Virus record (IMG/VR): IMGVR_UViG_3300047557_001143
Span: 1-56,291 of that record
Length of the DNA stretch: 56,291 nt
Source: a virus
Taxonomy: Duplodnaviria; Caudoviricetes
Direction: 5' to 3' (one strand)
Shown: one piece after another, positions 811 through 56,291 of the stretch
Numbering within the stretch: the stretch's first letter is position 1
How the letters are laid out: every line of letters starts with the position of its first letter
The notes under the pieces: generated by a model
Seen by the model: the letters and a program-made list of their open reading frames with translations, nothing else
Told to the model about the DNA's origin: nothing
Databases searched by the model: none
Program-made: the position numbers and the translations under genes

Positions 811-1260
811 ATGGCACAAACCTACTTTGGTAGCACGGTTCGGGCGGGTTCGGGTACTCTGACTGATACCACCGACGGTGGATTCATGGTCCTCATGCAG
901 ACCACGACGGCGACTACGGTCTCCGCGGGTACTGCTGTGACGAGCACGATCACCATCCCGGCGGACTCGCAGATCATCAACTTTTTCATTGACTGCACCA
1001 CGACCCCGGTTGTGGGTGGCGGCACGGCTACGGCTGTGAATGCCACGATCGGCACGGCCGCTGCGGGTACCCAGTACCTGTCGGCGACTGATGTGATTGC
1101 AGGTGGTCGCGCTTCTCTGTCCTTCACCGCGGCTCAACTGACCGCGATGGAAGATGTGAACAACAACACCACTGTTGCTTTCACGATCGATCCCAACGGG
1201 ACGGTTTCAACGACTCAGGGTGTGTACCGCCTCACGGTGGTCTACGCTCAGAAGGTCTAA
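811..1260 (+). CDS. Virion structural protein (Thr-rich, beta-sandwich-like)
   Basis: AAGGAG RBS, directly after capsid gene, Thr/Ala/Gly-rich. Confidence 0.65.
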   Translation: MAQTYFGSTVRAGSGTLTDTTDGGFMVLMQTTTATTVSAGTAVTSTITIPADSQIINFFIDCTTTPVVGGGTATAVNATIGTAAAGTQYLSATDVIAGGRASLSFTAAQLTAMEDVNNNTTVAFTIDPNGTVSTTQGVYRLTVVYAQKV

Positions 1261-1270
1261 GGAGGTCATC

Positions 1271-2317
1271 ATGGGCCAGTTCAAACCGATGGTCAAAATG
1301 ATGACCACCGAGCCTTCGGTGGAGTTGAAACTCAAGAAGGGCGGCGCCGTCACGATGATGAACGGTGGCGTGATGGGTGGCCTTGCGGCCGCTCCGTCTG
1401 CTGCTCCCGCTCGTGGCGGCATGATGCCGACTGCTCGCCCCAAGAAGCCTGGAATGGCCGCTCGTCGCGCTGCGATGATGGGTCGTCCCATGAAGGAAGG
1501 TGGCGAGACTGCAGCCGAGCACAAGGCCGAGATGGCCGCCATCAAGTCCGTGGACCGCAAACTGTCCAAGCACGCCGAAATGGCTGCGTCCAAGGCTCAC
1601 AAGGGCCTGAAGACCGGCGGCGTCGTGATGGGTCAGGGCGGCTTCAAGGCGGGTGGCGTCATCAAGTCCACCAAGGGCGAGACCAAGATGGTCACGGCTG
1701 AAGGTGAGCACCACACCCCCAAGAAGACCGGCGAGGTCGTCATGGGCAAGCCTGCCGGTTATAAGAAGGGCGGCAAGGCTATGGGCGGTTCTTGCTATGC
1801 CAAGGGCGGCGGCGTCGAGGGCAATGTGTCCACGACTCCTCCTGGAAAGACCAACACCACTACGGGTGAGGTCAAGAAGGGCAACGCCGGTGGCTACAAG
1901 AAAGGTGGCTACGCAAAAAAAGCCTTCGCGGCGGGGGGCAGTGTTAACGACACTGGTCGTCCCGTCGCGTATCCCAAGCATCCCGTTTCTCAGCCGATCA
2001 AAAACACCAAGCAGTCGGGCACTTTCAAGCACGGCGGCAAGGTGAAGATGAATGAAGGCGGCAAGGTTCCTGTGGGAGCCCAGTCCGCCATCAAGCAGGC
2101 TGATGCCGAGCGTGCCTATCGTGACTACGAGAAGGCCGAGAAGGCGGAGAATGAGGCCATGCGCGAGACGATCCTCGGAGCACCCGGTCGGATGTTCCGG
2201 GCCGTCAAAGGCTTGTTCAAGGGCGAAGAGAAACCCGCGGGCAGTGTGACCAAGACTGAGAAGTCTGTAACTGTTGCACCGGCCAAGAAGCGTGGCGGAT
2301 CAGTGAAGAAGTGCTGA
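1271..2317 (+). CDS. Lys/Gly/Met-rich putative internal head protein with ~12 xxxGG motifs
   Basis: GGAGG RBS before ATG 1271; repeated LKKGG, MKEGG, FKAGG, YKKGG, YAKGG, FAAGG, FKHGG, MNEGG. Confidence 0.75.
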   Translation: MGQFKPMVKMMTTEPSVELKLKKGGAVTMMNGGVMGGLAAAPSAAPARGGMMPTARPKKPGMAARRAAMMGRPMKEGGETAAEHKAEMAAIKSVDRKLSKHAEMAASKAHKGLKTGGVVMGQGGFKAGGVIKSTKGETKMVTAEGEHHTPKKTGEVVMGKPAGYKKGGKAMGGSCYAKGGGVEGNVSTTPPGKTNTTTGEVKKGNAGGYKKGGYAKKAFAAGGSVNDTGRPVAYPKHPVSQPIKNTKQSGTFKHGGKVKMNEGGKVPVGAQSAIKQADAERAYRDYEKAEKAENEAMRETILGAPGRMFRAVKGLFKGEEKPAGSVTKTEKSVTVAPAKKRGGSVKKC

Positions 2318-2664: not shown

Positions 2665-2901
2665 ATGGGCACGCTTGGCCACAATGGTGTTGCCAATCAG
2701 GCCAACACGACTGATGGCTTCGGCGGCAATGTCAATGCCGTCAATCCGGTCGGCGGGGGCATTGGCGAGGATGTTGGTGATGACGGGGTGGTTGACCTGT
2801 ACGGCGCCGCTCCTGATGTCACCTTCTACATCGCCGACGAGACTGATCCCGGCTATGTCCTGCAAGAGGACGACGACAAAATCATCTTGGAGTCATCGTA
2901 A
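2665..2901 (+). CDS. Small acidic structural protein ending in YVLQEDDDKIILESS
   Basis: Tightly coupled ORF; the C-terminal LQEDxxxIxLE motif is common in phage fibre-associated proteins. Confidence 0.55.
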   Translation: MGTLGHNGVANQANTTDGFGGNVNAVNPVGGGIGEDVGDDGVVDLYGAAPDVTFYIADETDPGYVLQEDDDKIILESS

Positions 2902-3323
2902 TGGCTGACCGCGATGCAAACTGGTACAAGATTAGGAACATCTGGTACTGCATGATCCATAGAACCACAAACCCGGCTCATTCTGAGTTTGCAAGGTATG
3001 GAGCAAGAGGCATCGCTGTATGTGATGAGTGGCATTCGTTTGATCGTTTTTACTTGGACATGAAGGATGGCTACATACCGGGCTTGTCCATCGAAAGAAT
3101 CGACAACGATCAAGGCTACTCGCTAGAAAATTGCAGGTGGGCAACAAAAAAAGAACAAGCCAACAACCGCCGCACGAGCAAGTTTTTTACCATTGACGGG
3201 GTCACAAAGACTCTTGCTCAGTGGATTGATGAATCGGGTTTGAAGGGCAGCACCGTTAGGCAGAGGCTTTATGCTTACGGATGGACTATTGAGCGTGCTC
3301 TATCCAAGAAAGTAGGAGGCTAA
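2901..3323 (+). mobile_element. Free-standing HNH homing endonuclease
   Basis: YGARGIAVCDEW...LSIERIDNDQGYSLENCRWATKKEQANNRR motif with C-terminal TLAQW HTH-like domain; lower GC than flanks; flanked by TGGCTGACC repeat. Confidence 0.9.
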
Positions 3324-3911: not shown

Positions 3912-4295
3912 ATGCCTCTGATCAAAGGCAAGTCCGAAAAGGCCTTCAAGGAGAACATCCGGGCAGAGGTCAAGGCCGGTAAGCCGGTCAAACAGGCTGT
4001 GGCCATCGCCTACGATGTTCAGAGACGGGCTCAACAGGGCAAAAAGGACGGCGGAAGCGTCTCTCTGGCCATCGGCCGGGGCGAAAAACTGCCCGCTTCC
4101 CAGGGCGCAGGGCTCACCGCAAAGGGTCGGGCCAAGTACAACCGCGAAACTGGGTCGAATTTGAAGGCTCCGCAGCCCCAAGGAGGCCCTCGGAGGGACT
4201 CTTTCTGTGCCAGGATGGGCCCGATCGCCGAAAAAAGCGAGAAAGGCAGCCGCGCAAGGGCCTCTATGAGGCGTTGGAACTGCCCAGGATGGTGA
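3912..4295 (+). CDS. Basic two-module virion protein (DUF6321-like C-terminal half)
   Basis: GLTAKGRAKYNRETGSNLKAP...RRDSFCARM...RRWNC motif; halves separated by KKDGG. Confidence 0.65.
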   Translation: MPLIKGKSEKAFKENIRAEVKAGKPVKQAVAIAYDVQRRAQQGKKDGGSVSLAIGRGEKLPASQGAGLTAKGRAKYNRETGSNLKAPQPQGGPRRDSFCARMGPIAEKSEKGSRARASMRRWNCPGW

Positions 4296-4305
4296 AGGAG
4301 GCCTG

Positions 4306-5376
4306 ATGTCCTACTCAGACACCTACGGACAGGTCTTTCCGGTCCAAACTTTGATCGATCACGCCGCTCGGCGGTGTGGAAAACTGGCCGAAGAACTGAC
4401 TTCTGAGCAACTTTTGAGTGCTCGGGAGTCTTTGGGCTTCGTTTTGACCAATCTGATCAACATCGGCATTCAATACTGGGCTGTTGAGAAGAAAGTCTTC
4501 GGTCTGACCCCCGAAAACTACATCTACACCCTCCCGAACGGGGCAAATGATGTCCTAAACGCCCTGTATCGCACGATGCAGCGGCCAAATGGGTCCTATA
4601 CGACCTCTGCAGGGGGCAATGTGGCCCTGGTGGGTGACTCCAATGTCAACACCTACTGCCAACAGACCTCTGCCAACGGCAACATCTCCATCAACTTCGG
4701 CACGGACAACCCAATCTACGCCGGATCGATCGGTTTGCTGCCATATGTGTCTGGCGGAGGCTCGGCGACCTGGAATCTGATCTTTGAGTACAGCACTGAC
4801 GGTTCAACCTGGAGCACTCTTGAGGATCTGGGCACTGTTGTCGTGACGGACAACGAGTGGATCTGGACGGACATCAATCCTGGCCAGAGCGTGCAGTATT
4901 ACCGGGTCCGGGCCTACGGTGGAACGACCCTGGCGCTGCGCGAGTTCTGGGTCGGCAACATGAGCCAAGAGATCACGATGGCTCGCCTGAACCGGGACGA
5001 CTACACGAACCTGCCGAACAAGAACTTCACGGCCAATCAGCCCTATCAGTTTTGGTTCAACCGCACGGTGCCGAACCCGCAGATCTACCTGTGGCCGGTC
5101 CCCTCGAACCCGTTTGTGCAGATGACGGTCTGGTACTCCCGGCAGATCATGGATGTGGGTGACCTGACGGATGAACTGCAGATCCCGCAGCGGTGGTACA
5201 TGGCGGTGGTGAATATGCTCGCCCACCAGATGGCCATGGAACTGCCGGCCATCCCGATGGAGCGCATTCAGTACCTTGAAGTTCAGGCTGAGAAGTACCT
5301 GAATTTGGCCGAGGCAGAGGAGCGCGACAAGTCGCCGATCTACTTCGCGCCTAACATTTCTGTATACACGAGGTAA
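4306..5376 (+). CDS. Head-tail adaptor/tail tubular protein with inserted discoidin-like domain
   Basis: ARESLGFVLTNL and IYLWPVP...QIPQRWYMAV adaptor-like segments interrupted by FEYSTDGSTWSTL...QYYRVR. Confidence 0.6.
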   Translation: MSYSDTYGQVFPVQTLIDHAARRCGKLAEELTSEQLLSARESLGFVLTNLINIGIQYWAVEKKVFGLTPENYIYTLPNGANDVLNALYRTMQRPNGSYTTSAGGNVALVGDSNVNTYCQQTSANGNISINFGTDNPIYAGSIGLLPYVSGGGSATWNLIFEYSTDGSTWSTLEDLGTVVVTDNEWIWTDINPGQSVQYYRVRAYGGTTLALREFWVGNMSQEITMARLNRDDYTNLPNKNFTANQPYQFWFNRTVPNPQIYLWPVPSNPFVQMTVWYSRQIMDVGDLTDELQIPQRWYMAVVNMLAHQMAMELPAIPMERIQYLEVQAEKYLNLAEAEERDKSPIYFAPNISVYTR

Positions 5377-8976: not shown

Positions 8977-11070
8977 ATGTCGATGCGTTACCCCGGGGGC
9001 TTCATTGCCTCTACACCTGTTACTGCGGGATACCCTTCGGGAGTATGGACGCAGGCGCAGGCCATCCCGTATCAGGCTCAGAATGTGTGGACTCGGGATC
9101 AGTTTTGGCCCTACACCACCCTGCTGCTGCAAGGCGATGGGGCGGTTAACGGTGCTCAGAACAATACTTTCCTAGACAGCAGTTCCAACAACTTCACCAT
9201 CACCCGGAACGGGAACACGACTCAAGGCAGTTTCACGCCTTATGAGCAGGATGGGTACTGGAGTAATTATTTTGATGGAACGGGTGACTATTTAAGAGTT
9301 GCCGACAGCACTGCGTTTGATCTGCCGGGAGACTTCACTCTTGAGTTTTGGATATATCCAACTGCATCCGGATTCGGTGTAGTGCTTGGAAGTGAAGATA
9401 GTGGCCAAAATGGTTTCGTTGTTTTCAATGGAACCAACATGGGTGTTTATGGTAACGGCGCGTCGATCATCAGCGTGTCAAGCGCGATTGTTTTGAACGC
9501 GTGGCAGCACATTGCCGTTGTTCGTAGCGGGACATCGCTTAAGTTCTATTTGAACGGCACTGAGCGTGGCTCAGCAACAAACTCAACTTCATTTACAGGT
9601 GTGGCCGGAAACGGGTTTGCTGTTGCGGCAACTTATACCAATACTTATATTACAAGCGGCACAGGATATTTTTCAAATGTGCGCCTTGTTAAGAGTGCGG
9701 TTTACACCACCAACTTCACGCCTCCCACAGCCCCGCTGACAGCCATTACAAACACCTCTCTCCTGACCTGCCAGTCCAACAGGTTCATCGACAACTCCAC
9801 CAACGCCTTCGCCATCACCCGTAACGGGGATGTCTCAGTCCAAGCCTTCCAACCCTTCCCCGGTGCTACTACCTACAGTGGCACTGTGTTGGGTGGGAGT
9901 GGGTATTTTGATGGAAGTGGAGACAGCCTAACCCGAGCGTTTACATCTACCACGGATGGGATGTATCCGCAGGGAACCACATACACCGTTGAAGCATGGG
10001 TCTATCCTACTGCAATCAGTGGGTACATTTATGTAACTGAAGCAACCAATACTTCAAATTACGGCACTTGGAAACTTTATATAGGTGGTTCTAGTCAGTT
10101 TGGTTTTGATTATCGCCCGACAACTGGTGGAACATATACAACTGTTGCATCAAGTGCTGCTGTTGCTTTGAATAGTTGGTATCATGTTGCAGTTTCAGTA
10201 TCCGCCGGTAGTGCAAGACTATTTGTAAACGGTACTCAAGTCGGATCAACAACAACCATATCGGCTATTTCATTTACACCTGTAGGTGCAACTGTAGGAA
10301 ATTCAGTCAATGGTTTTGATACTGCGTTTTTTACGGGTTACATCAGCAATTTAAAAATCACGCAAGGAACAGCAAATTACACTTCAAACTTTACGCCGCC
10401 CTCATCGCCTTTGACTGGAGGCAGTCTCTTACTCAACTTCACCAACGCCGGTATCTCTGATGCCGCAGTGATGAACGACTTGGAAACCGTAGGCAATGCC
10501 CAAGTCAGCACCAGTGTGGTGAAGTACGGCACGGGGAGTATGGCGTTTGATGGCAGCGGGGATTACCTCCGTACCCCTGACGGCCCGAATACTGAACTTG
10601 GTAGCGGCGACTTCACCCTTGAGTGTTGGGTCAACTTCAATAGCCTGCCTGCGTCAAACGGCCATCAGGCCACATTCGTGTCGAAGTGGGCGACCAATAA
10701 TGCGTCGTATGAGTTCTACCTGTATAACAACGCAGGCACGCAACAGTTGTACCTGACCTACTCGACGAACGGGACTGCAAGCACAAACCTTGGGGTGAAT
10801 TGGACTCCTGCTACCGGCGTGTGGTATCACATTGCCTGTGTACGCAATGGCGGCAATTTGACCTTTTGGGTGAATGGAACTCAGCAGGGCGCAACGCAGA
10901 CCATCAGCGGGACTTTGTTTGATGGCAGCGCAGGGATTGAGGTTGGCGGGTTTGTCGCTGGCAGCGCGAATACCGTCCTCAACGGCTACATAGACGACCT
11001 CCGCATCACGAAGGCGGCCCGTTACCTGACATCTTTCACTCCCCCGCCTGCGCGGATGCCCGGACAGTAA
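8977..11070 (+). CDS. Concanavalin A/LamG multidomain receptor-binding protein (3 LamG domains)
   Basis: Repeated FDGxGDYL, DFTxExW, WxHIAVVR, GYIxxLRI motifs. Confidence 0.9.
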   Translation: MSMRYPGGFIASTPVTAGYPSGVWTQAQAIPYQAQNVWTRDQFWPYTTLLLQGDGAVNGAQNNTFLDSSSNNFTITRNGNTTQGSFTPYEQDGYWSNYFDGTGDYLRVADSTAFDLPGDFTLEFWIYPTASGFGVVLGSEDSGQNGFVVFNGTNMGVYGNGASIISVSSAIVLNAWQHIAVVRSGTSLKFYLNGTERGSATNSTSFTGVAGNGFAVAATYTNTYITSGTGYFSNVRLVKSAVYTTNFTPPTAPLTAITNTSLLTCQSNRFIDNSTNAFAITRNGDVSVQAFQPFPGATTYSGTVLGGSGYFDGSGDSLTRAFTSTTDGMYPQGTTYTVEAWVYPTAISGYIYVTEATNTSNYGTWKLYIGGSSQFGFDYRPTTGGTYTTVASSAAVALNSWYHVAVSVSAGSARLFVNGTQVGSTTTISAISFTPVGATVGNSVNGFDTAFFTGYISNLKITQGTANYTSNFTPPSSPLTGGSLLLNFTNAGISDAAVMNDLETVGNAQVSTSVVKYGTGSMAFDGSGDYLRTPDGPNTELGSGDFTLECWVNFNSLPASNGHQATFVSKWATNNASYEFYLYNNAGTQQLYLTYSTNGTASTNLGVNWTPATGVWYHIACVRNGGNLTFWVNGTQQGATQTISGTLFDGSAGIEVGGFVAGSANTVLNGYIDDLRITKAARYLTSFTPPPARMPGQ

Positions 11071-11079
11071 GGAAGCACA

Positions 11080-13839
11080 ATGAGCCAACGGTACATCGGT
11101 GGACTGATCTACAACCCGCCCGGTGGGTTCTCGGGGTACTTTGACGGGAATGGGGATTATTTAAGCCTCGCAAGCAATGCGGCGTTTGCGATGGGGACGG
11201 GTGATTTCACCGTCGAGGGGTTCTTATATCTACCCACCACACAAAACTTCGGCACTCTGTTCCTTTCGTCTACTACCGGCTCAGGGGATTCGCTTCATGT
11301 TCAGATCAGCAGCGCCAACAAGGTTCGCGTAACTAACGCAACAACCGAGTTTTTGCTTGGTACTAACGCCATCCCTCTGAATACTTGGTCGCACATTGCA
11401 GTTGTTCGGTCAGGGACAACACTGTCGATTTACCAAGACGGGGTATTGAACGGGTCAACCACAAACAGCACAAACTTCATTCAGAGTGGCGCTCTTGTTG
11501 GGTATGAACCATTTGGTGGAAACTTCTACTTCACTGGCTACATCTCAAATGTGCGTGTGCTGAAGGGCACCGCGCTCTACTCGGGCAGCACTTACACCGT
11601 CCCGTCCGGCCCTCTCCAAGCCATCACCAACACTTCCCTGCTGACCTGTGCCTACCCCACCTTCAGGGATGGCAGCAGCAACAACTTCACCATCACGGTG
11701 AACGGCAACACGGCGGTTAGCGTACAGAACCCCTTCCCGCTGACGGCTCTGCCCAACCCTAACTTGGGCAATCAGGGCAACGGTGTCTACACCATGAGCC
11801 AGTATCAGTCGCTGCGCTCACAGAACCTGTGGCCTGCGGTTGACCCGTACTGGGAGTATGTGACCCTGATGCTGCACGGCAACGGCACCAACGGGGCGCA
11901 GAACAACACCTTCCTCGACAGCAGCACCAACAACTTCACGATCACCCGCAACGGCAACACCACGCAGGGTGCGTTCAGCCCGTATGGGGATAACTGGTCG
12001 AACTACTTTGATGGCACAGGGGATTACCTGAATCTTGGAGGACAGTCCGCGTTTTCTTTTGGAACCGGGGATTTCACTATTGAATTTTGGGTTTATCTTA
12101 ATTCTACTACTGCAAATCTTTCTGATTTTCGTCAAGCATCCACAAATGGCTTGTATCCCGCAATTTATGTAACTAACGGATCTTTGCGTTATTATGTAAA
12201 TTCTTTAGATAGAATAACGAGTAGTACTACTTTAGCGGTTGGTACTTGGTATCATGTTGCTCTTTCTCGTAGTGGCACAAGTACCCGTTTGTTTTTGAAC
12301 GGTGTTCAAGAAGGCTCCACCTACACAGATTCCAATAACTATATAGTTGGACCGGATAGGCCTACTATTGGAATCAGTGGTTTTGATGGAACAGGGAACC
12401 CATTAAACGGCTATCTTTCTAACTATAGAATTGTGAAGGGAACTGCAGTTTATACTTCCAACTTCACCCCGCCTACTGCACCCCTCACCGCAATCACCAA
12501 CACCTCTCTGCTGACCTGTCAGAGTAACCGCTTCCGTGACGCATCTACCAACAACTTCACCATCACGCGCAACGGTGATGTGAGCGTCCAGCGCTTCAGC
12601 CCGTTCAATCCGACTGCGCCCTATGCCGCAGGCACTGATGGCGGGAGTGGGTACTTTGATGGGACGGGGGATTACCTGACGGTTGCCGATAACGCGGCCT
12701 TTCAGTTGGGGTCGGGAGCCTTCACTATTGAGGCTTTCTTCTACTCCACCTCAAGCGGCGATCAGGTCATCATCAGCAAGTGGGGAAGCCCGGACAGTAA
12801 TGCTGCGTGGGAGATCATTTACTACGCGGGCACGCTGTATTGCCAAGTTTCTTCAGGCAGCACCGTTACATCACTGACCACCACAACATTCCCGCTCAAC
12901 CAATGGAACCATGTGGTGATGGTTCGCAGTGGCAACACGCTTTCTGCTTACTTGAACGGAACGCGGTTTGCCACTAATGGCGCTTACTCAAGCACGGTGA
13001 ACAACGGATCAAACGGGGTCAGTATTGGAACTCGTGCCGGTGGCAGCAGTTTCCCGATGGTTGGGTATATCTCCAACGCCCGTGTCGTCAAAGGCACCGC
13101 AGTTTACGACCCAACGCAGTCCACGCTAACCATTCCCACCGCGCCGCTTACGGCCGTCACCAACACATCCCTGCTTTGCAACTTCACCAACGCAGGCATC
13201 CTCGACAACGCGATGATGAACGATCTAGAAACGGTGGGTAACGCTCAGATCAGCACGAGCGTGAGCAAGTTCGGTGGTGGGTCACTGGCGTTTGATGGAA
13301 GCGGGGATTATCTTTCTTCTCCGCAGTCTCAAAATTACTCTTTTGGCACAGGGGACTTCACAATTGAAGGTTGGATATATCTGTCAAGCAACACTGGTGC
13401 TTACAGAACTATCGTTCACATACCGCATTCTTCAGGTTCTGTTCTTGTTAGATTTGGAAGTTCCATTGACTATAGTTCATATTTTCAAGTTTCCACGCTT
13501 GCGACATCTGCTTCAAATGTTTACAGCACCAATCAAAATCAGGCAGCATTGCTAAACAAGTGGGTTCACTTTGCATTTACCCGCAGCAGTTCCACTTGCC
13601 GCGTGTTTTTGGATGGAGTTCAGCAAAACCTTGGCACTGGTGTGACACCGACAAGTTTTCCTAACACCTCATTTTCTGACTCTACAAACATCGTTAATAA
13701 TTCAGCGGTTGGTATTGGTGACGCGATTGGCAACAATATCCCGTTTATTGGCCACATCGACGACCTGAGAATCACCAAGGGATACGCTCGCTACACCGCC
13801 AACTTCACGCCGCAGCGTTCGCAGTGGCAAGACCAGTAA
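11080..13839 (+). CDS. Concanavalin A/LamG multidomain receptor-binding protein (4 LamG domains)
   Basis: Same LamG motifs; linkers paralogous to those of 8977-11070. Confidence 0.9.
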   Translation: MSQRYIGGLIYNPPGGFSGYFDGNGDYLSLASNAAFAMGTGDFTVEGFLYLPTTQNFGTLFLSSTTGSGDSLHVQISSANKVRVTNATTEFLLGTNAIPLNTWSHIAVVRSGTTLSIYQDGVLNGSTTNSTNFIQSGALVGYEPFGGNFYFTGYISNVRVLKGTALYSGSTYTVPSGPLQAITNTSLLTCAYPTFRDGSSNNFTITVNGNTAVSVQNPFPLTALPNPNLGNQGNGVYTMSQYQSLRSQNLWPAVDPYWEYVTLMLHGNGTNGAQNNTFLDSSTNNFTITRNGNTTQGAFSPYGDNWSNYFDGTGDYLNLGGQSAFSFGTGDFTIEFWVYLNSTTANLSDFRQASTNGLYPAIYVTNGSLRYYVNSLDRITSSTTLAVGTWYHVALSRSGTSTRLFLNGVQEGSTYTDSNNYIVGPDRPTIGISGFDGTGNPLNGYLSNYRIVKGTAVYTSNFTPPTAPLTAITNTSLLTCQSNRFRDASTNNFTITRNGDVSVQRFSPFNPTAPYAAGTDGGSGYFDGTGDYLTVADNAAFQLGSGAFTIEAFFYSTSSGDQVIISKWGSPDSNAAWEIIYYAGTLYCQVSSGSTVTSLTTTTFPLNQWNHVVMVRSGNTLSAYLNGTRFATNGAYSSTVNNGSNGVSIGTRAGGSSFPMVGYISNARVVKGTAVYDPTQSTLTIPTAPLTAVTNTSLLCNFTNAGILDNAMMNDLETVGNAQISTSVSKFGGGSLAFDGSGDYLSSPQSQNYSFGTGDFTIEGWIYLSSNTGAYRTIVHIPHSSGSVLVRFGSSIDYSSYFQVSTLATSASNVYSTNQNQAALLNKWVHFAFTRSSSTCRVFLDGVQQNLGTGVTPTSFPNTSFSDSTNIVNNSAVGIGDAIGNNIPFIGHIDDLRITKGYARYTANFTPQRSQWQDQ

Positions 13840-15858: not shown

Positions 15859-16251
15859 ATGAGTTCTGCAGTCAAGTCAGATCCGGGCAAGTGGAAGCGC
15901 ATCGTCGCCTCCGTCAAGGCTTCCGGCAAGGGTGGGGCTCCTGGCCAGTGGAGTGCTCGCAAGGCTCAACTTGCAACTCAGAAGTACAAAGCCTCTGGAG
16001 GGGGTTACAAGGGCCCCAAGAAGGCCGATAATTCCTTAGCCAAATGGACCCGCGAAGATTGGGGAACGAAGTCTGGAAAACCCTCAACTCAAGGCCCGGA
16101 AGCCACTGGTGAGCGGTATTTGCCCAAGGCCAAGATTCAGAAACTGACGCCGGCCGAATATGGGGCGACGACCCGAGCCAAGCGAGAGGGCATGAAACAG
16201 GGCAAGCAGTTCGTCTCTCAGCCTGAGTCGATCAAGAAGAAGGTGTGGTGA
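15859..16251 (+). CDS. Basic conserved phage protein (DUF5872-like)
   Basis: GQWSARKAQL...YKASGGGY...SLAKWTREDWGTKSGK...ERYLPK. Confidence 0.7.
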   Translation: MSSAVKSDPGKWKRIVASVKASGKGGAPGQWSARKAQLATQKYKASGGGYKGPKKADNSLAKWTREDWGTKSGKPSTQGPEATGERYLPKAKIQKLTPAEYGATTRAKREGMKQGKQFVSQPESIKKKVW

Positions 16252-16886
16252 TGACCGTCGCAGCCGTGATGACCTACGATTCTCTGGTCGAGAACATCCA
16301 GTCCTATCTGGAGCGTACCGATCAGGCGACTCTGGACAAGATTCCCCTGTTCATCATGCTCGCGGAGCAGGTTATTGCCTCCCAGATCAAGTTTCTGGGC
16401 AACCTGACGGTCCAGACAAGCACGATGGTTCAGGGCACCAATATCATCGACAAGCCCGCCCGGTGGCACAAAACCGTGTCCATGAACATCACCGTGGCCG
16501 GTAAGCGGTATCCGGTGCTGCTGCGCCGCTACGAGTACCTGCGGGAATACTGGCCCGATCCTGCCCAGGAAGGCATCCCGAAGTTCTACTGCGACTACGA
16601 CTACACCCACTGGCTCGTGGCTCCGACGCCTGCGGCGGCGTACAACTTCGAGGTGCTGTACTACGAGCGGATTCAGCCCCTGGACAGTAGCAACCAGACC
16701 AACTGGTTCACCATCTACGCCCCTCAGGCCCTCCTGTACGGCTCCCTGCTCCAGGCCATGCCGTTCCTCAAGAACGATGAGCGCATGGGGATGTGGCAGC
16801 AGCAGTACGAAGCCATCATGCAGACCTTGATGGCCGAAGACAAACTCAGAGTGGCCGATCGTCAGGCCGTGGCCATCGACAGTTAA
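16251..16886 (+). CDS. Head-tail adaptor protein
   Basis: MTYDSL...IPLFIMLAE, VAPTP, NWFTIYAPQALLYGSL motifs. Confidence 0.75.
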   Translation: MTVAAVMTYDSLVENIQSYLERTDQATLDKIPLFIMLAEQVIASQIKFLGNLTVQTSTMVQGTNIIDKPARWHKTVSMNITVAGKRYPVLLRRYEYLREYWPDPAQEGIPKFYCDYDYTHWLVAPTPAAAYNFEVLYYERIQPLDSSNQTNWFTIYAPQALLYGSLLQAMPFLKNDERMGMWQQQYEAIMQTLMAEDKLRVADRQAVAIDS

Positions 16887-16895
16887 GGACAGGTC

Positions 16896-18134
16896 ATGAG
16901 TTACAACTCGCCTTTCACCGGCAATGTGGTCCAACCGACCGATGTCTCTTTCCGGGCTATCACCCTCACGGCCAACACTCAGTTGGAGTGGCCGATCAAC
17001 GGCAACGCCACGGATGACTACGCAGCCCGGATCATGAATGTGACGGCGTCTTCGGGCGGTCTCGCCCTGTGGATGCCTCCGGCCAACCAGACCTCGGTGG
17101 GCAACGATGCGCTGATCCGTAATGTGGGCGCCAACACCTTCACGGTGAAGGACTACAACGGCACGAACACGCTGATCACGATCGCCGCGGGTGAGGCCAA
17201 GTACCTCTACATCACCTCCAACGCTAACGAGCAGGGCACCTGGGGCAATATCGCCTTCGGCACCGGAACCTCTGCAGCGGACGCGGCCTCTCTGGCCGGG
17301 TATGGGTTGGTGGCTAACGGCTCAACTCTTAACCAGAGCCACCCCTCTCAGTCTCTGATTGCGGCGTATACCTTCGTGGTCAACGACCGCGCCCAGACTT
17401 ACATCTGGACCGGCGGCACCACCACGGCGACGCTGCCGTCTGCTGTTGCGACTGGCAACAACTGGTTCGTGCTGTTCAAGAACAACGGCACCGGAACGGT
17501 CACGATCGGCACGACGGGCGGCCAACTGTTGGATGGCCAGACCTCAAAGGCCTTCGCCCCGGGAGAGTCGGCCTTCATCATCTCTACTGGAACGGCGTAT
17601 GTCACGGTGGGATACGGCACGAGTACGGAGTTCGAGTTCGGCGTGTTGACCAAGCCGGTGACCTCCGGCGCGTACACCCTGACGGCTTCTGAGGCCTCAA
17701 ACACGATCCAGTTCTACACCGGCACCCTGTCGGGGAATGTCACGGTCACCTACCCGCCGGTGGTGAATCTGTATGTGGTTTCTAACCAGACGGTAGCCGG
17801 AGGCTTCACCCTGACGGTGACAACCGGTATTGGCGGCTCTGCTACCGCGGTGATTCCTGCATCTGGTCAGGCAACACTGATCTGCGACGGGACGAACTTC
17901 TACAACGCCAACACCACCCAGGCAGGCGCCACCGCTCTCAGTTTGATCAACGGCACGGCAGGCTCTCCGTCTCTGAACTTTGCTTCCGAGACCAACTCTG
18001 GCGTGTATCGCCCAGGTGCAGGACGGTTCGGCATCTCCATCCTGGGCAACCTGATTGCTGATGTCACGGCCACGGGACTTGCAGTCAACGGGTCGGGCAA
18101 CTTCACTTCCGGCATCTCCGGCGGGGCATTCTGA
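16896..18134 (+). CDS. Tail structural protein
   Basis: Beta-rich; GTAGSPSLNFASETNSGVYRPG fibre motif; ends GISGGAF. Confidence 0.7.
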   Translation: MSYNSPFTGNVVQPTDVSFRAITLTANTQLEWPINGNATDDYAARIMNVTASSGGLALWMPPANQTSVGNDALIRNVGANTFTVKDYNGTNTLITIAAGEAKYLYITSNANEQGTWGNIAFGTGTSAADAASLAGYGLVANGSTLNQSHPSQSLIAAYTFVVNDRAQTYIWTGGTTTATLPSAVATGNNWFVLFKNNGTGTVTIGTTGGQLLDGQTSKAFAPGESAFIISTGTAYVTVGYGTSTEFEFGVLTKPVTSGAYTLTASEASNTIQFYTGTLSGNVTVTYPPVVNLYVVSNQTVAGGFTLTVTTGIGGSATAVIPASGQATLICDGTNFYNANTTQAGATALSLINGTAGSPSLNFASETNSGVYRPGAGRFGISILGNLIADVTATGLAVNGSGNFTSGISGGAF

Positions 18135-20400
18135 TGACCAAGAAGGTCTTCGCGCTCGATACCAAGCCCGGTATTCAGCGGGACGGAACTCTCTTTGACA
18201 AGGAGTTCTATGTCGACGGCCGGTGGGTGCGGTTTCAGCGCGGGCGGCCGCGCAAGATCGGCGGGTATCGTCAGATCACAGACAAGATGTCTGGACCTTC
18301 TCGGGGCATCTATGTGGTGCCCCGAAATGCATTCAACAACATCTACAACGGGTACTCTGACGGTCTGCAGGTCATTCCGGTGGACGACAACGGCACCGGC
18401 TCTGGCATCACCGACTACACCTTCGGCGGCCCGATCCTGACGACCAACACGCTCGTCGGGGGCTCTGGATACACCAACGGCACCTACACAGGCGTTCCGC
18501 TGTCATATGTGTCCTCCGGGACCGGTTCCGGGGCCTCTGCGACGATCGTGGTGTCTGGCGGTGCTGTGACTGCGGTGACGATCACGGGCGGCGGATACGG
18601 CTATCTGCAGTACGACAAACTGACCGCGGCCGCATCCTTGATCGGCGGCACCGGCTCGGGCTTTTCCGTGCAGGTGGCCACCGTCAACAGTTGCTTCACG
18701 CCTTCCGTCAACAACCTGTGGCAGTTCGACACTTTCACAGACTCCTCCGGATCTGGCGCAAACCTGCTCTTGGCGCACCCCTCTCAGGATCTTTCTCAGA
18801 TCGACGATGAGACGAACACGCCGGTGCTGTGCGGGCCTCTCACAGGCACAAACCTTCGCCCGGTAGGCGTGTTCACGGAAGTAGCGGCCACCATCACCAG
18901 TGGCTCCAACTCGGTGACTCTGGCCTCTGCCAACACCAACATCGGTGTCGGACAACTCATCACCGGGCCTGGAATCCCTGCAGGCACCTTTGTGCAGGCC
19001 ATCTCGACGACCACGCTGACCTTGAGCCAGAACGCCTCGGCGAGCGGCACGAATGTCACCCTGGTGTTCGACAACGAGGTGTCTGTGTCTGGCGGAGTGG
19101 TTTCTCTGCATCCGTATGTCTTCGTGTACGGCAATGACGGATTCCTGAGGAACTGCGCGGCCGGGAATATCGACGATTGGGTGTCGGCTGACGCTAACGA
19201 GGTCAATGTGGCCACCGGCAAGATTGTTCAAGGTCTTCCGGTTCGAGGCGGCTCTAACGCGCCTTCTGGGCTGTTCTGGAGCCTGGACTCCATCATCCGC
19301 GTGTCTTACGCGCCAACGAACATCGTGGTGGGCGGAACGACCATCACCCAATACTGGCGCTACGATGTGATCACCTCTCAGTCTTCCATCCTGTCGGCTC
19401 AGAGTGTGATTGAGTACGACGGCGTGTACTTCTGGTGCGGGACTGACCGATTTCTTCTGTACAACGGTGTAGTTAAAGAGATTCCGAACTCGATGAACCA
19501 GAACTGGTTCTTCGACAACCTGAACTACACCCAGAGGCAGAAGGTCTTCGCCACGAAGGTCCCCCGCTTTGGGGAGATCTGGTGGTTCTACCCTCGGGGC
19601 GACTCTGCTGAGTGCAACGACGCGATCATCTACAACATCCGTGAGAACACTTGGTATGACCTTGGGCAAGCCTTGGGCGCCCGTCGTTCTGCCGGGTACT
19701 TCTCCCAGGTTTTCCGCTTCCCGGTCAACGCCGGGTGGGAAGCCAACTACACCGGGGCAATCAACACCCTGTCCATCTCCAATGCGGGATCTGGCTACAC
19801 GGATGGCACTTACTCTTTCCAGACTCTCACCGGAGGGTCTGGATCTGGCGCCACGGCCACGATCGTCATCTCCGGAGGGTCTGCAATCTCTGTCATTCTG
19901 AAGGACAAGGGTATCAACTACGCCGTGGGCGACACCCTTACTGCAGCCATTCCTGGCGGAACCAACCTGCAGTTCACGATCGACACCACGGTGGACTTCG
20001 TGACCCTGTGGCAACACGAGGTTGGGACAGACGAAGTCGCTTTCGCTCAGGTCAACGCCATCGAGTCCTACTTTGAGACCTCTGATCTTGGATGGGTGGC
20101 TGGTGGGCCTTCTGAGCCGTCTCCGGTGGGCGAGAACCGGTGGCTACGGATCGAGCGGGTGGAGCCTGACTTCATCCAGTCTGGCGACATGGATCTGTAC
20201 ATCACGGGTCGTCCTTATGCTCAAGAGCAGGACAAGACGACGGGCCCCTATACCTTCGCCCCGGGGACTGGCAAGATCGACATGAAAGAGCAGCGTCGAG
20301 AGTTGCGCATGAAGTTCGTCTCCAATGTCGAAGGCGGCAACTATCAGTTGGGCAAGGTGATCGTCAACGCCGATGTGGGCGATGTCCGCGGATACTCGTC

Positions 20401-20404: not shown

Positions 20405-25519
<5,115 letters not shown>

Positions 25520-25529
25520 AGGAGCCGAT

Positions 25530-26462
25530 ATGTCACTCTTTGAAGGCAAAGCGCCGCCGGACATACAGACCACCAGAACTACGGCGGCTTCGGCTCCGAA
25601 GTATCTGACGGACTACCTGACTGATCTGGCATCGGCAGGTCAGTCTCAACTTGGCAAGACCGGCGAGGAGTTGGTGGCCGGCCAGGGGGCCCTGCAGCAG
25701 CAGGCCTTCAAGGAGGCTCCTGGTGCTCTGACGCGGTATCAGCAGCCCCTGTCCTCTGCCCTGTCGGCGGGACAGGCTGCTGCGGCTCCTACAACCGCGG
25801 CGGACATCTCGGCCTTCTACAACCCCTACGAGCAGCAGGTGGTGAACGATCTGGCCCGTCAGAGTGCCATGAATGTTCAGCAGACGATGCTGCCACAACT
25901 GCGAGGCGCTTTCGCGGGGACTGGGGCTTTCGGCAGCCGCCGGTATGCCGGAGCCACCGGACAGGCCCTGGCGGATGTTCAGCAGGATTTGTTGTCGCAG
26001 CAGGCAAAACTTCGTGCTGCAGGCTATACCTCTGCACTTGATGCCGCTCTGCGTCAACGCCAGACGCAAGCCCAGGCTGCGCAGGCTCTTGCAGGCACAG
26101 GCTCTGCTGAAGTGGGTGCGGCCAAGAACTACCTGGATGTTCTGTCCAACCTTGGACAGCAGCAGCAGGCATACGAGCAAGCCAAGATTGAGGCTCCTCT
26201 GATGCGGGCTCAGAATGTGGCGCAGATCATGCGCGGGTACACCTACCCGACGACCGTGGAGGAGACCTATAAGGGTCCCGGCACTGTTTATCAGCCCTCT
26301 CCGCTGCAGCAGATTGCCGGCCTAGGCGCTCTGCTTGGGTCTGGCTTCAATACTCCCGGCGGATGGGGCAACAGATTGGCCGGCCTGTTTGGCCGATTTG
26401 TGAGAGACCTTCCTGGTAGTCAGCCTGACTGGTGGCCCGAGGGCATTGAAGGGGGACCGTAA
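25530..26462 (+). CDS. DNA ejection/pilot-like protein
   Basis: Gln/Ala-rich, FYNPYEQQVV and GAFGSRR motifs, C-terminal SPLQQIAGLG helix. Confidence 0.65.
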   Translation: MSLFEGKAPPDIQTTRTTAASAPKYLTDYLTDLASAGQSQLGKTGEELVAGQGALQQQAFKEAPGALTRYQQPLSSALSAGQAAAAPTTAADISAFYNPYEQQVVNDLARQSAMNVQQTMLPQLRGAFAGTGAFGSRRYAGATGQALADVQQDLLSQQAKLRAAGYTSALDAALRQRQTQAQAAQALAGTGSAEVGAAKNYLDVLSNLGQQQQAYEQAKIEAPLMRAQNVAQIMRGYTYPTTVEETYKGPGTVYQPSPLQQIAGLGALLGSGFNTPGGWGNRLAGLFGRFVRDLPGSQPDWWPEGIEGGP

Positions 26463-26464
26463 GC

Positions 26465-28474
26465 ATGGCAACTGCACCCAAGACTAGCGCACGGTCTTAC
26501 TACGCCGAAACTCCCGAAGAGAAGTCAAAACTTGAGGCTTTAATGGAGAGCCGCAAGCGTCTTCAGGACGCACTGGCCTCTCGCAGTGATCCATTGTTTG
26601 ATCCTACCCTCTTGGCTATTGCTCAGGGAATGCTTGCGCCAACTAGGAGTGGGTCTTTTGGTGAGGCATTGAGCAATGTTGCCGGTTTAGTAGGCCCTGC
26701 GCAGGCTGCCGAAGAAAAGCGGATTCTTGAAAATGCTCAGATTCGCGCAGAACTCGCAGCACAGGATTTCTTAGTAGAGCAACAGGCTGAAACCGCAAGG
26801 CAGATGGCGCGGCAGCCGTCAATTTTTGATGTCATGGCTGGGCGGGCGGGCCCAAGCGCTCTAGGCGGCGCCCCCGCCTCTGCTCAGGCAGTGCCTACAA
26901 CTCCCATCGGAGTTCCCGGGGAAGTTCCTAGTAAGGCCCCCGGCGCGGCTCAAATGGGGCCGGCAACCGGCGGCAGGAATGTGTTGCAGGGGCTTGAGAT
27001 GATTGAGCAGCAATTCAGGTCTCCGCGTCCTGAAATGCAGGCTCGGGCGAAGCAGAACTTGGAACTTTGGCAAGCGGCCAACAAAGATCAATTTAAAGTT
27101 GAGAACCGAGTTGTCTACGATATGTTCAATGTAGACGCTAACGGCCGACCCCGTATCGTTGCCGATCTTGGCGAGCAGAAGCCTTATGAGATTACCTACA
27201 AAGGACAAGGTCGATCTGTGCCCGCAACTGCTGTTGAGGTTCAAGAGTACAGGGATCAACAGATGCGCGGCCCCGAGGCTGAAGAGGCGGCCTTCAATCG
27301 TTTGTTTAAGGGGCGCAGAAGTGGCGTAGAGTCTATGCCGTTTGGCGGTGAGCGCGGGATGTTCTCTGTTCGGATTCCCGATCCTGCCAACCCCACTCAG
27401 TTGCTGACCTTGACTGGAGAGGCGACTGCGCGTCAGCGGGCACTGCTTGAAGAGGCTCAAGAACGGGCGTTCAAGACTGGGGACTTTGGCGAACTTCAGC
27501 GTATGTATACGGAAGCCACTGGCCAGGGCGCGTATCGCCCAAGAGGTCCTGCTGCGGCTCCTGGAGCGCCCGCTCCCGCCGGAGCCCCTGCCGGTGCGCC
27601 ATCAGCAAGAATTCCCTCTGCTGAACAGGCCAAGCGCGATCAAGACAGCCAAGCGATCCTTCGAGACGAGTTGTCGAAGACAAGTCAGCGTGTGGCGGAT
27701 GCGATTCGGGACAACAACCCCGAAGAAGAGCGGCGTGCCCGGTCTGACATCTTGGCCATTCGTCGGCAACTGGACTCTATGCAGGGGGTTCCTGCAGGCC
27801 TGTCTGTCGATCCAGAGTTAGCATCGCTGCCTGTTGGCGAACAGGTCAAGATTACGATTGACCGAATCAAGGCGAGCGACAAGGAAGCCGGCGATCAGAT
27901 GGCGTTGATCCGCCAAGTTGGCTCTCCTGCTCAGGTCACTGCTTCCGATCGCAGAAACCAAGAGATTTTGACTTTGGCCAGAGAGAATCCCAAGGTCTTC
28001 AACCTGATGGCTCGGCAGGGGCTGTTTACGGCTCTCGCTGCTTCTGCTAATGAAGGCTTCAAGGTTGGTCAGTATTCTGTTTCTGCGCCGGTTCAAACCT
28101 TCTTGCAGAAGTTGAATCTGACTCCTCAAGAGCAAGCGGTTGCGCGTCGCGTGACCATGCTGCTTGACGAAGAGTTCTTCAACAGAGCGGTCTACAACAA
28201 GACTGTGCTTGGGCCTCAGATCTCAAACGCAGACGCTACGCTGATGAAGTCGCCGATGGCTCGGCCAGAGGACTCTGCCAAGGTCATCGCCTACTGGGCG
28301 CAGCACGCTCTGCTGACAAACCGTCAGGCGGCTGAACTCTACAACGCGGCCATGAAGTACCCGGCAAACCGCAGCCCGAGAGGGTTTATTGCGCAGGATG
28401 CCGCCAACATCATGAACACTTACACGCCGCGGTATCAGGTGCTGCAGCAGAGATTCTCCGCAGGAGGTCAATGA
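26465..28474 (+). CDS. Putative ejection/internal virion protein
   Basis: Helical Ala/Gln/Pro-rich; GPQISNAD motif; operon position. Confidence 0.6.
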   Translation: MATAPKTSARSYYAETPEEKSKLEALMESRKRLQDALASRSDPLFDPTLLAIAQGMLAPTRSGSFGEALSNVAGLVGPAQAAEEKRILENAQIRAELAAQDFLVEQQAETARQMARQPSIFDVMAGRAGPSALGGAPASAQAVPTTPIGVPGEVPSKAPGAAQMGPATGGRNVLQGLEMIEQQFRSPRPEMQARAKQNLELWQAANKDQFKVENRVVYDMFNVDANGRPRIVADLGEQKPYEITYKGQGRSVPATAVEVQEYRDQQMRGPEAEEAAFNRLFKGRRSGVESMPFGGERGMFSVRIPDPANPTQLLTLTGEATARQRALLEEAQERAFKTGDFGELQRMYTEATGQGAYRPRGPAAAPGAPAPAGAPAGAPSARIPSAEQAKRDQDSQAILRDELSKTSQRVADAIRDNNPEEERRARSDILAIRRQLDSMQGVPAGLSVDPELASLPVGEQVKITIDRIKASDKEAGDQMALIRQVGSPAQVTASDRRNQEILTLARENPKVFNLMARQGLFTALAASANEGFKVGQYSVSAPVQTFLQKLNLTPQEQAVARRVTMLLDEEFFNRAVYNKTVLGPQISNADATLMKSPMARPEDSAKVIAYWAQHALLTNRQAAELYNAAMKYPANRSPRGFIAQDAANIMNTYTPRYQVLQQRFSAGGQ

Positions 28475-29514
28475 TGGCCAAAGACAAAGACGATGATGTC
28501 GAGAAGTGGCTGAAGGAGAACCTCCCTCAGTACGAGGAAACCGTCAAGGCGCTTCCAGATATGGAAGTGACTGTTGATGAGAAGAAGACGCCTATCCCCA
28601 TCTCTCCTGAGGACCGCCTGACATATGGCGCAATCGGTGCCGGCGTCGGAGCCGCTGCTTCAAAGGGCATGGCCAATCGACTCGTTGCTCAGAGGCTTGC
28701 TCAAGGTAAGCCGGTTCCGCCTTCTCTCTTCAGCGCGGCAAGTCCTTCTGCTCGGGCAGTTCGCGCAGCCCCAACCGCTCCCGCTCCTGCTCCCATGGCG
28801 CCCCCTATGGGAGCCCCGACAGTACCTGGGCGAAGTGTCACAGATCAAATCCTGCAGGGCACGATTGAGGACGGCGCTACTGGACGGGCCAGGACCACGG
28901 GATTCAATGTCCAAACAGCCCAGGAAGCCGCTCGTCAGCGTCAGATGGCCGAACTCATTGAAGAGATGCGCCGTCGTGGTGTTGTCGGTCAGTCTGCCAA
29001 GGATCTCTTTGCTTCCCTGCCGGGAATGACCTCCACTCCCTCAGGCGTTCTGACGCCTCGGGCTGAGGCTCCGACTACCGCCGGCCCTCGTCCTGCTCCT
29101 GCAGCCCCGTTTATGGGCCCTCCTGAGCCTCCTACGACGGGCGGCTACACCATGCAACAGAGGCCTGGGGCCCTGCAGCAGGCTGCCGGGATGGCCAAGC
29201 GTGGCATGGGGGCAATCGCATCTCCTGTTGCTGAAGTCGGAGGTGCGTTGCTGTCCTCTCCTCGGATCTCTGGCGCACTAGGTGGCGCGGGTGTGGCAGA
29301 AAGTGCCATGCAGTATCTGAGCCGTCAGGATGCAGATCCGATGGGGGCAAAAGTTTCCGTAGGCACAGGGATGTTGGGGCTACTCTCGCTGCTGCCCCAA
29401 ATTACTCCGGCCACAAGGATGGCGGCGGGCGTTTTGTCTCCGCTCGGGATGTATCTCTACGACAAGTTGATGCCGTACAAGTCTGTTTTAGAGCAGCCTC
29501 CGCCGCAGCAATAG
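28471..29514 (+). CDS. Putative ejection/internal virion protein
   Basis: Last late gene before terminator; Ala/Pro/Gly-rich with hydrophobic C-terminus. Confidence 0.55.
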   Translation: MMAKDKDDDVEKWLKENLPQYEETVKALPDMEVTVDEKKTPIPISPEDRLTYGAIGAGVGAAASKGMANRLVAQRLAQGKPVPPSLFSAASPSARAVRAAPTAPAPAPMAPPMGAPTVPGRSVTDQILQGTIEDGATGRARTTGFNVQTAQEAARQRQMAELIEEMRRRGVVGQSAKDLFASLPGMTSTPSGVLTPRAEAPTTAGPRPAPAAPFMGPPEPPTTGGYTMQQRPGALQQAAGMAKRGMGAIASPVAEVGGALLSSPRISGALGGAGVAESAMQYLSRQDADPMGAKVSVGTGMLGLLSLLPQITPATRMAAGVLSPLGMYLYDKLMPYKSVLEQPPPQQ

Positions 29515-54089: not shown

Positions 54090-54099
54090 GAGGAGTCCT

Positions 54100-56244: not shown

Positions 56245-56291
56245 ATGGCAGCCCCGATGCGTAGTACAGACTTTCGTTCCATCGTTGAGCC
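56245..56291 (+). CDS. Major capsid protein N-terminus (partial)
   Basis: AAGGAGG RBS then MAAPMRSTDFRSIVEP, running off the window end. Confidence 0.85.
   Translation, partial: MAAPMRSTDFRSIVE

Follow-up and report, generated by a model that had tools for sequence, protein, structure and literature searches.

A hydrophobic-x-x-Gly-Gly motif repeated in a polycationic head-module protein of a podophage and present at flexible junctions of other phage proteins: a tentative docking motif

The viral record IMGVR_UViG_3300047557_001143 of IMG/VR was analysed over its full length of 56,291 bp (hereafter the window), and we focus on one of its genes, at positions 1271-2317, whose product P0001 is crowded with short sequences of the form hydrophobic-x-x-Gly-Gly. 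This motif is real and strongly selected in P0001, a polycationic and probably disordered protein of the head module. Three further protein families of this phage and its relatives show, in sequence alignments, the same consensus where their chains have flexible junctions. We tentatively propose, as the most likely of the functions considered, that it is a docking motif serving as a packaging address; cleavage guided by the motif is nearly equally likely. A preliminary description of the same DNA had suggested that virion proteins are cut at the motif or packaged through it, by analogy with adenovirus and African swine fever virus (ASFV). The data presented here fit the idea that the junctions of probably packaged or ejected proteins bear a functional motif; they do not support a mechanism of the adenovirus/ASFV type.

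The gene and its ribosome-binding region are as follows:
1259-1265, plus strand: Shine-Dalgarno-like AAGGAGG, read from the sequence upstream of the ATG at 1271
1271-2317, plus strand: P0001, 348 residues, Lys- and Gly-rich, probably disordered (translation, shuffles, composition and ESM Atlas model)

P0001 is a real, conserved late gene, and its start codon is sound (ATG at 1271, AAGGAGG at 1259-1265, upstream stop at 1258-1260). All the motifs first listed for the protein are present, namely LKKGG, MMNGG, MKEGG, LKTGG, FKAGG, YKKGG (twice), YAKGG, FAAGG, FKHGG, MNEGG and KKRGG; in all there are 18 GG, 12 of which have M, F, Y or L three residues ahead of the first G. Enrichment was tested against composition-preserving shuffles of the same protein, 20000 in the case of P0001. 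The shuffles contained 9.2 GG on average, and the observed 18 were reached by 21/20000; for [MFYLK]xxGG, 14 occurrences compare with a mean of 2.47, and for [MFYL][KAN]xGG, 10 compare with 0.33, neither count being reached by any shuffle (0/20000 in both cases). Composition thus fails to account for the number of motifs. Successive motifs are often 5-13 residues apart, and tandem GG-[Y/F]-K-x-GG units recur; no tandem repeat was found in the DNA of 1271-2317. The protein has an isoelectric point of 10.16, with 65 K+R vs 27 D+E. Its ESM Atlas model shows no confident fold (predicted local distance difference test, pLDDT, 0.43; predicted template-modelling score, pTM, 0.16), and the Atlas matches consist of unnamed viral clusters and structure rows with a template-modelling score of at most 0.30, where 0.5 is suggestive. 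P0001 is therefore modelled as what is probably an intrinsically disordered polycation.

P0001 belongs to a family of at least 4862 proteins (E <= 0.001, among 8000 scored candidates), all named 'hypothetical protein', which fall into 397 clusters when grouped at 50% identity (E <= 1e-30 for 93 of these) and which were found in freshwater-type phage contigs; in IMG/VR, 554 of the 599 matched stretches encode a relative. Across 151 family representatives (50% identity), [MFYLW]xxGG occurs 1479 times against 170.9 expected, and every one of the 151 exceeds three times its own expectation. A logo built from 2242 GG contexts has Y/F/M/L at -3 (63%), K/A at -2, K/T/A at -1 and, as the second residue past GG, V/A/I, which refines the motif to [YFML]-[KA]-x-G-G-x-[VAI]; half of all Tyr (50%) and 38% of all Phe of the family lie at -3 of GG. 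The number of motifs is 9-15 (median 12) in 114 close homologues, 9-13 in homologues from five related genomes (0.9-1.3 expected) and 11 in the 449-residue homologue of MW202545.1 (2.35 expected), where number and spacing differ. The parts of P0001 that hardly vary are its first 25 residues (to LKKGG), the cluster spanning residues 205-258 and the ...KKRGG tail at the C-terminus. The spacers are variable and of low complexity, rich in Met, Pro, Ala and Gly, and longer relatives add more sequence of this kind. Many family members (e.g. P0002, P0247) also end in Cys, 1-5 residues after the last K-[KR]-GG (...KKC, ...AKC, ...GRC), as does gp092c (42 residues) of Caulobacter phage RW (...GKC).

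No Pfam (E <= 0.01), PHROG or PDB match was found for P0001, PDB having been searched with the single sequence and with a 48-sequence profile. Pfam returned no family for any of 10 long relatives and only compositional matches for 48 family members, such as Loricrin in 2 of the 48. The Pfam KGG stress-protein repeat is matched neither by P0001 at E <= 0.01 nor by any of the 48 members at E <= 1. The literature search retrieved no description of the motif or of the family. The gene order major capsid protein > P0001 > DUF6321 > adaptor is conserved, with DUF6321 in 79 and the adaptor in 76 of 80 loci.

The metagenomic phage MW202545.1 is the sole close named relative of the window phage; judged by the portal, it is related among cultured phages to Caulobacter phage RW and its kin (48% identity), to the roseophages CRP-901 and CRP-902, and to the pelagiphages HTVC027P and HTVC023P. 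In tblastn searches no phage record other than MW202545.1 has a P0001 homologue, and P0001 was seen in no cultured phage: in Caulobacter phage RW the capsid gene is not followed by a P0001-like gene, CRP-901 has no strict motif cluster in the 19-kb region scanned, and all that HTVC027P offers is small basic proteins carrying the motif once or twice. Between its portal and GroES genes (17355-19666 of locus L098), HTVC027P encodes gp44-gp52, a series of small and strongly basic proteins, which include a stand-alone DUF6321 and a DUF5872-like domain, both fused in window proteins.

The motifs reported by the preliminary description outside P0001 are likewise all present: KKDGG in 3912-4295, FAQGG, MNEGG and AKKGG in 20648-25519, MKKGG, MAGGG and KKKGG in 47307-50801, and AQKGG in 53325-53480. 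Its claim that they are shared among virion proteins holds only in part, being supported by position and by conservation in homologues and failing on overall counts (see below). The relevant features are:
3912-4295, plus strand: small basic two-domain protein with a phrog_2423-type N-domain (residues 1-45), KKDGG (44-48) and DUF6321 (Pfam, PHROG)
15859-16251, plus strand: DUF5872 protein with two PHROG families (residues 9-51 and 54-128) and YKASGG at their seam; register off by one, weak instance
25169-25249, plus strand: FAQGG/MNEGG/AKKGG cluster, residues 1508-1534 of the ejection protein, directly ahead of its conserved C-terminal module
25250-25519, plus strand: tape-measure-type C-terminal module G-x-G-x-S-D-x-I-P-A-x-L-x-x-G-E-F-V (tblastn; weak match to phrog_17300)
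47307-50801, plus strand: polyvalent protein, 1164 residues, with a PcfJ-like domain (Pfam PF14284) and a conserved C-terminal block; adjoins the portal gene
49248-49334, plus strand: linker module MKKGGAV...ISDNPDTMNLEL...MMAGGG, residues 648-676, opening the conserved C-terminal block
50709-50798, plus strand: C-terminal tail KKKGGAV...ITDNLDAMRLAV, read from the sequence as a second copy of the linker-type module
53325-53480, plus strand: 51-residue basic protein past the portal gene, with AQKGG near its C-terminus; weak, variable instance
55075-55623, plus strand: p182, conserved head-module protein with LKSGG (residues 9-13) in a disordered N-terminus (32 sequences)

Domain searches identify the product of 47307-50801 as a polyvalent protein, since several unrelated and variable effector domains occur in a virion gene context: ahead of the same C-terminal block, homologues carry ART-PolyVal (PF18760), PF18838, ParB (PF02195), acetyltransferase (PF13508) or GDSL domains. 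It is the only window protein besides P0001 that is individually enriched in the motif (7 vs 2.08 expected), and its homologue in genome G002 is enriched too. The motif is concentrated ahead of that block: at least one copy lies in the 90 residues preceding the C-terminal block in 84 of the 89 usable homologues (of 119), with a density of 1.79 per 100 residues vs 0.41 elsewhere, the latter value including two occurrences of the pattern inside domains (LPLGG in 89/89 homologues and the WFGGG bin in 86/89). Motif clusters also begin many of the polyvalent homologues. A GG-plus-acidic tail resembling the linker module ends gp49 of HTVC027P.

The 1623-residue ejection protein (20648-25519) carries its motif cluster immediately before the C-terminal module, and 62 unique orthologue segments of 70 residues contain 1.81 motifs on average vs 0.41 in shuffles; distant orthologues keep the motif with altered spacing. 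A tblastn search with the C-terminal ~90 residues retrieved 19 records, which include podophage relatives and, with E of 1e-4 to 7e-6, the tape measure proteins of Gordonia phage Mutzi, Nitrincola phage 1M3-16 and Arthrobacter phage TripleJ; a PDB sequence search with the C-terminal 223 residues gave no match. Hydrophobic-x-x-GG precedes the module in Caulobacter phage RW, HTVC027P, Synechococcus phage MinM2 and the Gordonia and Nitrincola tape measure proteins. Over its full length the protein is depleted in the motif (6 vs 11.3 expected), because it is 22% Gly. It has long GGTT-type, GTGV-type and ~200-residue Ser-Gly runs, and imperfect DNA tandem repeats of period 6-54 at 23402-24816 encode its Gly-rich runs. 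Orthologues range from 515 to 1948 residues, so that this repeat region may expand and contract.

In the small protein 3912-4295, the N-domain (or the C-domain) is swapped among 53 unique orthologues and the L/M/K-x-x-GG seam is kept; in long DUF6321 proteins, the motif lies 20-21 residues ahead of the DUF6321 core in 76 of 103. At least two N-domain and at least two C-domain types combine among close relatives of 3912-4295 (loci L014-L075), and DUF6321 also terminates many polyvalent proteins of 300-1700 residues with SLT or ART-PolyVal domains. Among 32 sequences of p182, G12 and G13 are invariant and L9 is nearly so. This tag is found in MW202545.1 and is absent from the RW, CRP-901 and HTVC027P orthologues; thus, both P0001-bearing lineages examined have it, and the three relatives in which tblastn detected no P0001 homologue all lack it. 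P0001 and the polyvalent, ejection and DUF6321 protein families all keep the hydrophobic residue at -3 and K/A at -2. Other instances are weak: the AQKGG of 53325-53480 has no hydrophobic residue and several of 33 unique orthologues lack GG, and the C-terminal FSAGG of 26465-28474 is absent in all five orthologues found.

The absence of a recognisable prohead protease, noted in the preliminary description, agrees with the domain scans. These covered 48 window proteins with Pfam and 20 with PHROGs, about 29 small ORFs (open reading frames) lying outside them, and yielded no peptidase except a lysozyme-type lysis enzyme. In particular, no prohead protease was matched by Pfam or PHROG in the portal-to-capsid interval, which holds small ORFs, a GroES-like protein, a scaffold-like protein, p182 and p198. 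The full annotation of MW202545.1 names no protease besides the endolysin peptidase, and 'protease' has no occurrence in the CRP-901 paper. Two proteins of the interval were considered as hidden proteases with AlphaFold models built on alignments of 32 and 34 sequences, respectively: p182 has a pLDDT of 66.6 and no fold match (best E 0.48), and the model of p198 resembles capsid decoration proteins.
55633-56229, plus strand: p198, probable capsid decoration or cement protein (AlphaFold pLDDT 81.7, pTM 0.81)
The best Foldseek matches of p198 are capsid-associated chains of HFTV1, Sf11, Pam3, T1 and TW1 (E 0.017-0.13, none at E <= 0.001, probability up to 0.99), and from its model it is a probable decoration or cement protein. 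A similarity of 47307-50801 to Lon was also rejected (E 0.033 with the whole protein and 0.33 with a fragment); it covers chain positions 31-99, taken as outside the protease domain, and the Lon-like stretch is found 5-6 residues beyond the sole shared block. Asn-Pro self-cleavage at an NPDTM element was set aside, homologues having NLDTM, NIDAM or SPDTM there. No embedded metallopeptidase (MPTase) was seen in 47307-50801, PF14284 being the only domain found by Pfam. The adenovirus/ASFV analogy was abandoned on these grounds and on two others: the hydrophobic residue is at -3, and at the junction sites the residue following GG is frequently Pro, which makes cleavage right behind GG less likely at these sites.

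How could the motif then act? According to the docking proposal, the functional units of P0001 would be its ~12 copies of [Y/F/M/L]-[K/A]-x-G-G-x-[V/A/I] set amid fast-changing spacers, and the same motif would serve at flexible junctions or ends of the polyvalent protein, the tape-measure-like ejection protein, the DUF6321 protein and the p182 N-terminus. Its exposed hydrophobic-Lys-Gly-Gly turn would be recognised by a putative common partner, inside the procapsid or at the portal/tail channel; P0001 would form a multivalent hub and, in addition, neutralise the charge of the DNA; the cargo proteins would each carry one to three copies. We infer that the carriers lie within the virion, that a single partner reads all copies and that cutting is dispensable. 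Docking is supported by: (i) the conservation of the motif and not of the spacers in P0001, which fits the motif as the functional unit and is typical of multivalent binding motifs, (ii) the ejection or polyvalent nature of the carriers (a DNA ejection neighbour at 25530-26462, a polyvalent architecture and a tape-measure-type module), (iii) the junction placement in 84/89 polyvalent homologues and 76/103 DUF6321 proteins, (iv) the co-occurrence of the p182 tag with P0001 and (v) the absence of a recognised protease, in which the window phage is like P22-type podophages, which mature without a prohead protease. The enrichment and logo of the P0001 family, the placing of so much of its Tyr and Phe at -3, the lack of a confident fold and the conserved gene order speak for it as well.

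Several points weigh against this proposal. The presence of P0001 inside the virion is read from gene order only. Outside P0001, [MFYLK]xxGG occurs in the window proteins at chance level (36 vs 35.6 expected), and the strict form [MFYL][KAN]xGG 7 times vs 5.0; the non-P0001 ORFs of five related complete genomes have 146 motifs vs 132.6. Late genes as a class are not enriched, and the comparison of late and early genes proposed in the preliminary description thus fails (24 vs 28.0 expected in late proteins without P0001, 4 vs 4.0 in early ones). The motif is missing from two of the four proteins of the ejection module (25530-26462 and 28471-29514) and therefore cannot be a universal address. 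Conservation at junctions could simply reflect the descent of each module, and the fixed distance of 20-21 residues suggests that the motif may simply belong to the DUF6321 module. Finally, the region homologous to that of the ejection protein in lambda gpH and T5 pb2 is a known cleavage region, which favours cutting.

A possible, if somewhat doubtful, alternative is accordingly that the motif is a proteolytic processing site of packaged precursors, with a protease of the host, a cryptic one of the phage or self-cleavage as the agent. Processing would free the effector domains of the polyvalent protein and the C-terminal module of the ejection protein, and P0001 would be reduced to small basic peptides retained on the DNA; cleavage immediately after GG is not required by this alternative. 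The motif does sit in disordered junctions whichever domains flank it, and it stands ahead of the C-terminal module in the ejection protein as in the tape measure proteins that share this module. Lambda gpH is reported to be cleaved in a glycine-rich region during tail assembly and its fragment to stay in the particle, the exact cut site and the catalysis of the cut being reported as unknown. gpH (NC_001416) contains 6 motifs vs 1.11 expected, a number reached by 3/2000 shuffles, and two of them in that region, FATGG (733-737) and YATGG (778-782), flank a ...HRGEFVF... stretch. The resemblance of gpH to the window protein is one of motif pattern, with no significant alignment, which tempers the argument. 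T5 pb2 is also described as cut in this region during tail assembly to give pb2C, a 92-residue fragment, and a T5 preprint states that the site was mapped. Placed on the T5 record, 92 residues put the boundary 4 residues ahead of the GG of an xxxGG element (...RAEGG...), hence near the motif and, if 92 is exact, not after GG. The title of a cited reference points to a host role in T5 tail-protein cleavage, which would make a missing phage protease a weak argument against cutting. Nevertheless, no protease was recognised by Pfam (48), PHROGs (20) or in the two AlphaFold models; full cutting of P0001 at motifs 5-13 residues apart would yield peptides of 5-10 residues; the sites are conserved and the would-be products are not; and Pro follows GG at many junctions. 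For the polyvalent proteins, Iyer et al. 2017 (PMC5512222) predict packaging and processing, the latter being assigned to an embedded MPTase described as common in such proteins, which we did not see here. 'Glycine' and 'PcfJ' have no occurrence in a term search of that article and, as far as this search goes, the junction motif is not described there.

It is tempting to speculate further that hydrophobic-x-x-Gly-Gly is a 'delimiter code' common to siphophage tape measure proteins (lambda gpH, T5 pb2), podophage ejection and polyvalent proteins and small basic cargo proteins, which would direct limited proteolysis by a host or cryptic activity. We consider this generalisation unlikely. If it were true, P0001 would be a polyprotein of small DNA-bound basic peptides and gpH would be converted to gpH* by a cut at FATGG or YATGG.

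Rather unlikely too is the absence of any shared code, in which case the P0001 repeats would be putative nucleic-acid-binding or condensing stickers, aromatic and Lys residues in a Gly-flanked flexible context akin to RGG, SPKK and AT-hook repeats, and the look-alikes elsewhere would be unrelated parts of their own modules. The charge of P0001 (isoelectric point 10.16, 65 K+R vs 27 D+E), its recurring tandem GG-[Y/F]-K-x-GG units, the counts outside P0001, which match composition (strict form 7 vs 5.0), and the often non-basic context of the motif in other proteins (e.g. MAGGG) are all consistent with this explanation. It accounts poorly for the hydrophobic -3 and K/A -2 kept by all four families, for a polyvalent protein that is individually enriched in both the window and G002, and for the p182 tag that co-occurs with P0001.

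We regard as improbable that the motif is an inert structural hinge or turn (a Gly-Gly beta-turn with a hydrophobic cap) tolerating domain shuffling, frequent at module borders since recombinants survive when these borders are flexible and inert: domain swapping around the DUF6321 junction, the varying effector sets of polyvalent homologues and the pattern inside folded blocks (LPLGG, 89/89; WFGGG bin, 86/89) would suit it, but it leaves unexplained the Y/F/M/L at -3, the K/A at -2, the V/A/I after GG and the 12 copies in one protein, and the coding sequence has no DNA repeat as a recombination signal. Mimicry of the GroES mobile loop, conceivable in a phage with a Cpn10 homologue, was set aside, the motif being without the hydrophobic triplet of that loop.

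The genomic context of these genes is that of a podophage, judged from its adaptor and ejection genes. The window is the entire viral record, classed as linear, with a CheckV completeness estimate of 100%, and the plus strand holds most of its genes. Besides those already listed, the head module comprises:
1-765, with the start at 56245-56291, plus strand: major capsid protein, C-terminal part (Pfam Phage_capsid_4); gene split by the contig ends
50812-53325, plus strand: portal protein (phrog_1216, E 5.8e-17)
53649-54089: Cpn10/GroES homologue inside the head module (Pfam E 1.4e-07)
54076-55071, plus strand: scaffold-like protein, 331 residues, with an acidic N-terminus and coiled-coil rich by eye (phrog_28737, function unknown)
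The contig ends do not join in frame across the major capsid gene, so that a handful of bases must be absent or doubled where this permuted assembly is broken. The Cpn10/GroES gene is annotated at the equivalent place in Caulobacter phage RW, CRP-901 and HTVC027P. The putative scaffold role of 54076-55071, for which Pfam gave no match, is suggested by position and composition; with proteins of 182 and 198 residues, it makes up three unassigned head-module proteins. Terminase small and large subunits, a lysozyme and an SU10-type adaptor were recognised among the late genes. Two ORFs (4306-5376 and 16245-16886) match the SU10 adaptor family, one strongly (E 1.1e-27) and the other just below the cut-off (26.3 vs 27 bits), the ORF of the latter having an inserted discoidin-like stretch. 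Ejection-type proteins occupy the block 20648-29514, in which 25530-26462 matches the PHROG 'DNA ejection protein'.

Elsewhere, the 140-residue ORF 2901-3323 has a low GC content at third codon positions (0.54), is present in 1 of 80 related loci and has no Pfam match; it looks like a recently inserted mobile gene. At a similar place, Caulobacter phage RW has a homing-endonuclease-like insert. Two large tail-fibre-like proteins, each with 3-4 Laminin_G_3 domains, are encoded by 8977-13839, the lowest-GC part of the genome (0.50-0.53), which suggests a recently exchanged host-range module. A PAPS-reductase-like protein (35472-36308) and an NAD-dependent sugar epimerase/dehydratase (40489-41445) are found among the early/middle genes.

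P0001 thus represents a large, unnamed family, and its motif bears on a broader question: the loading of injected proteins in podophages without a prohead protease is poorly understood, and a short shared motif provides a testable handle on it. Through the tape-measure module, the motif is also tied to the old question of where and how lambda gpH is cut, which can be addressed in a laboratory phage. Should the motif prove to direct packaging or cutting, capsids could be filled with foreign cargo by means of it, or the mature forms of polyvalent proteins predicted from it.

In adenovirus and ASFV, cleavage of virion precursors at sites that contain GG sets free small basic peptides associated with DNA, the adenoviral consensus having a hydrophobic residue two places before GG and a cut after GG; the window motif has its hydrophobic residue one position further from GG, and no protease of clan CE or of any other kind was recognised in the window proteins scanned. 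The internal proteins of T4 are small, basic and packaged with DNA via a short shared N-terminal address that is not GG-based and is removed by gp21, whereas the motif of P0001 is internal and repeated and no protease was recognised here. Double-glycine leader peptides are cut by C39 peptidase domains: the N-terminus of P0001 (...E-L-K-L-K-K-G-G) and the linker (...M-x-L-E-L-x-x-x-G-G) resemble their acidic-Leu helix followed by GG, but differ by one position in register; a C39 domain was not detected, the motif occurs internally and repeatedly, and there is no export context. Like the sticker-and-spacer disordered proteins, such as FG-nucleoporins, RGG boxes and SPKK repeats, P0001 has many aromatic or basic mini-motifs in a Gly-rich flexible sequence with variable spacers, although the motif sequence differs. 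The polyvalent proteins of PMC5512222 have in common with 47307-50801 variable effector domains and a conserved block beside virion genes, and differ from it in their MPTase-based processing, no MPTase being seen in 47307-50801. As for the tape measure proteins, lambda and T5 have no P0001 counterpart, P0001 has no tape-measure-type module, and the window protein that carries this module is a podophage ejection protein rather than a tail-length ruler; yet the Gordonia, Nitrincola and Caulobacter phage proteins and, by pattern, lambda gpH have the same arrangement as the ejection protein, with hydrophobic-A-x-G-G placed directly ahead of a G-x-G...G-E-F/Y-V module.

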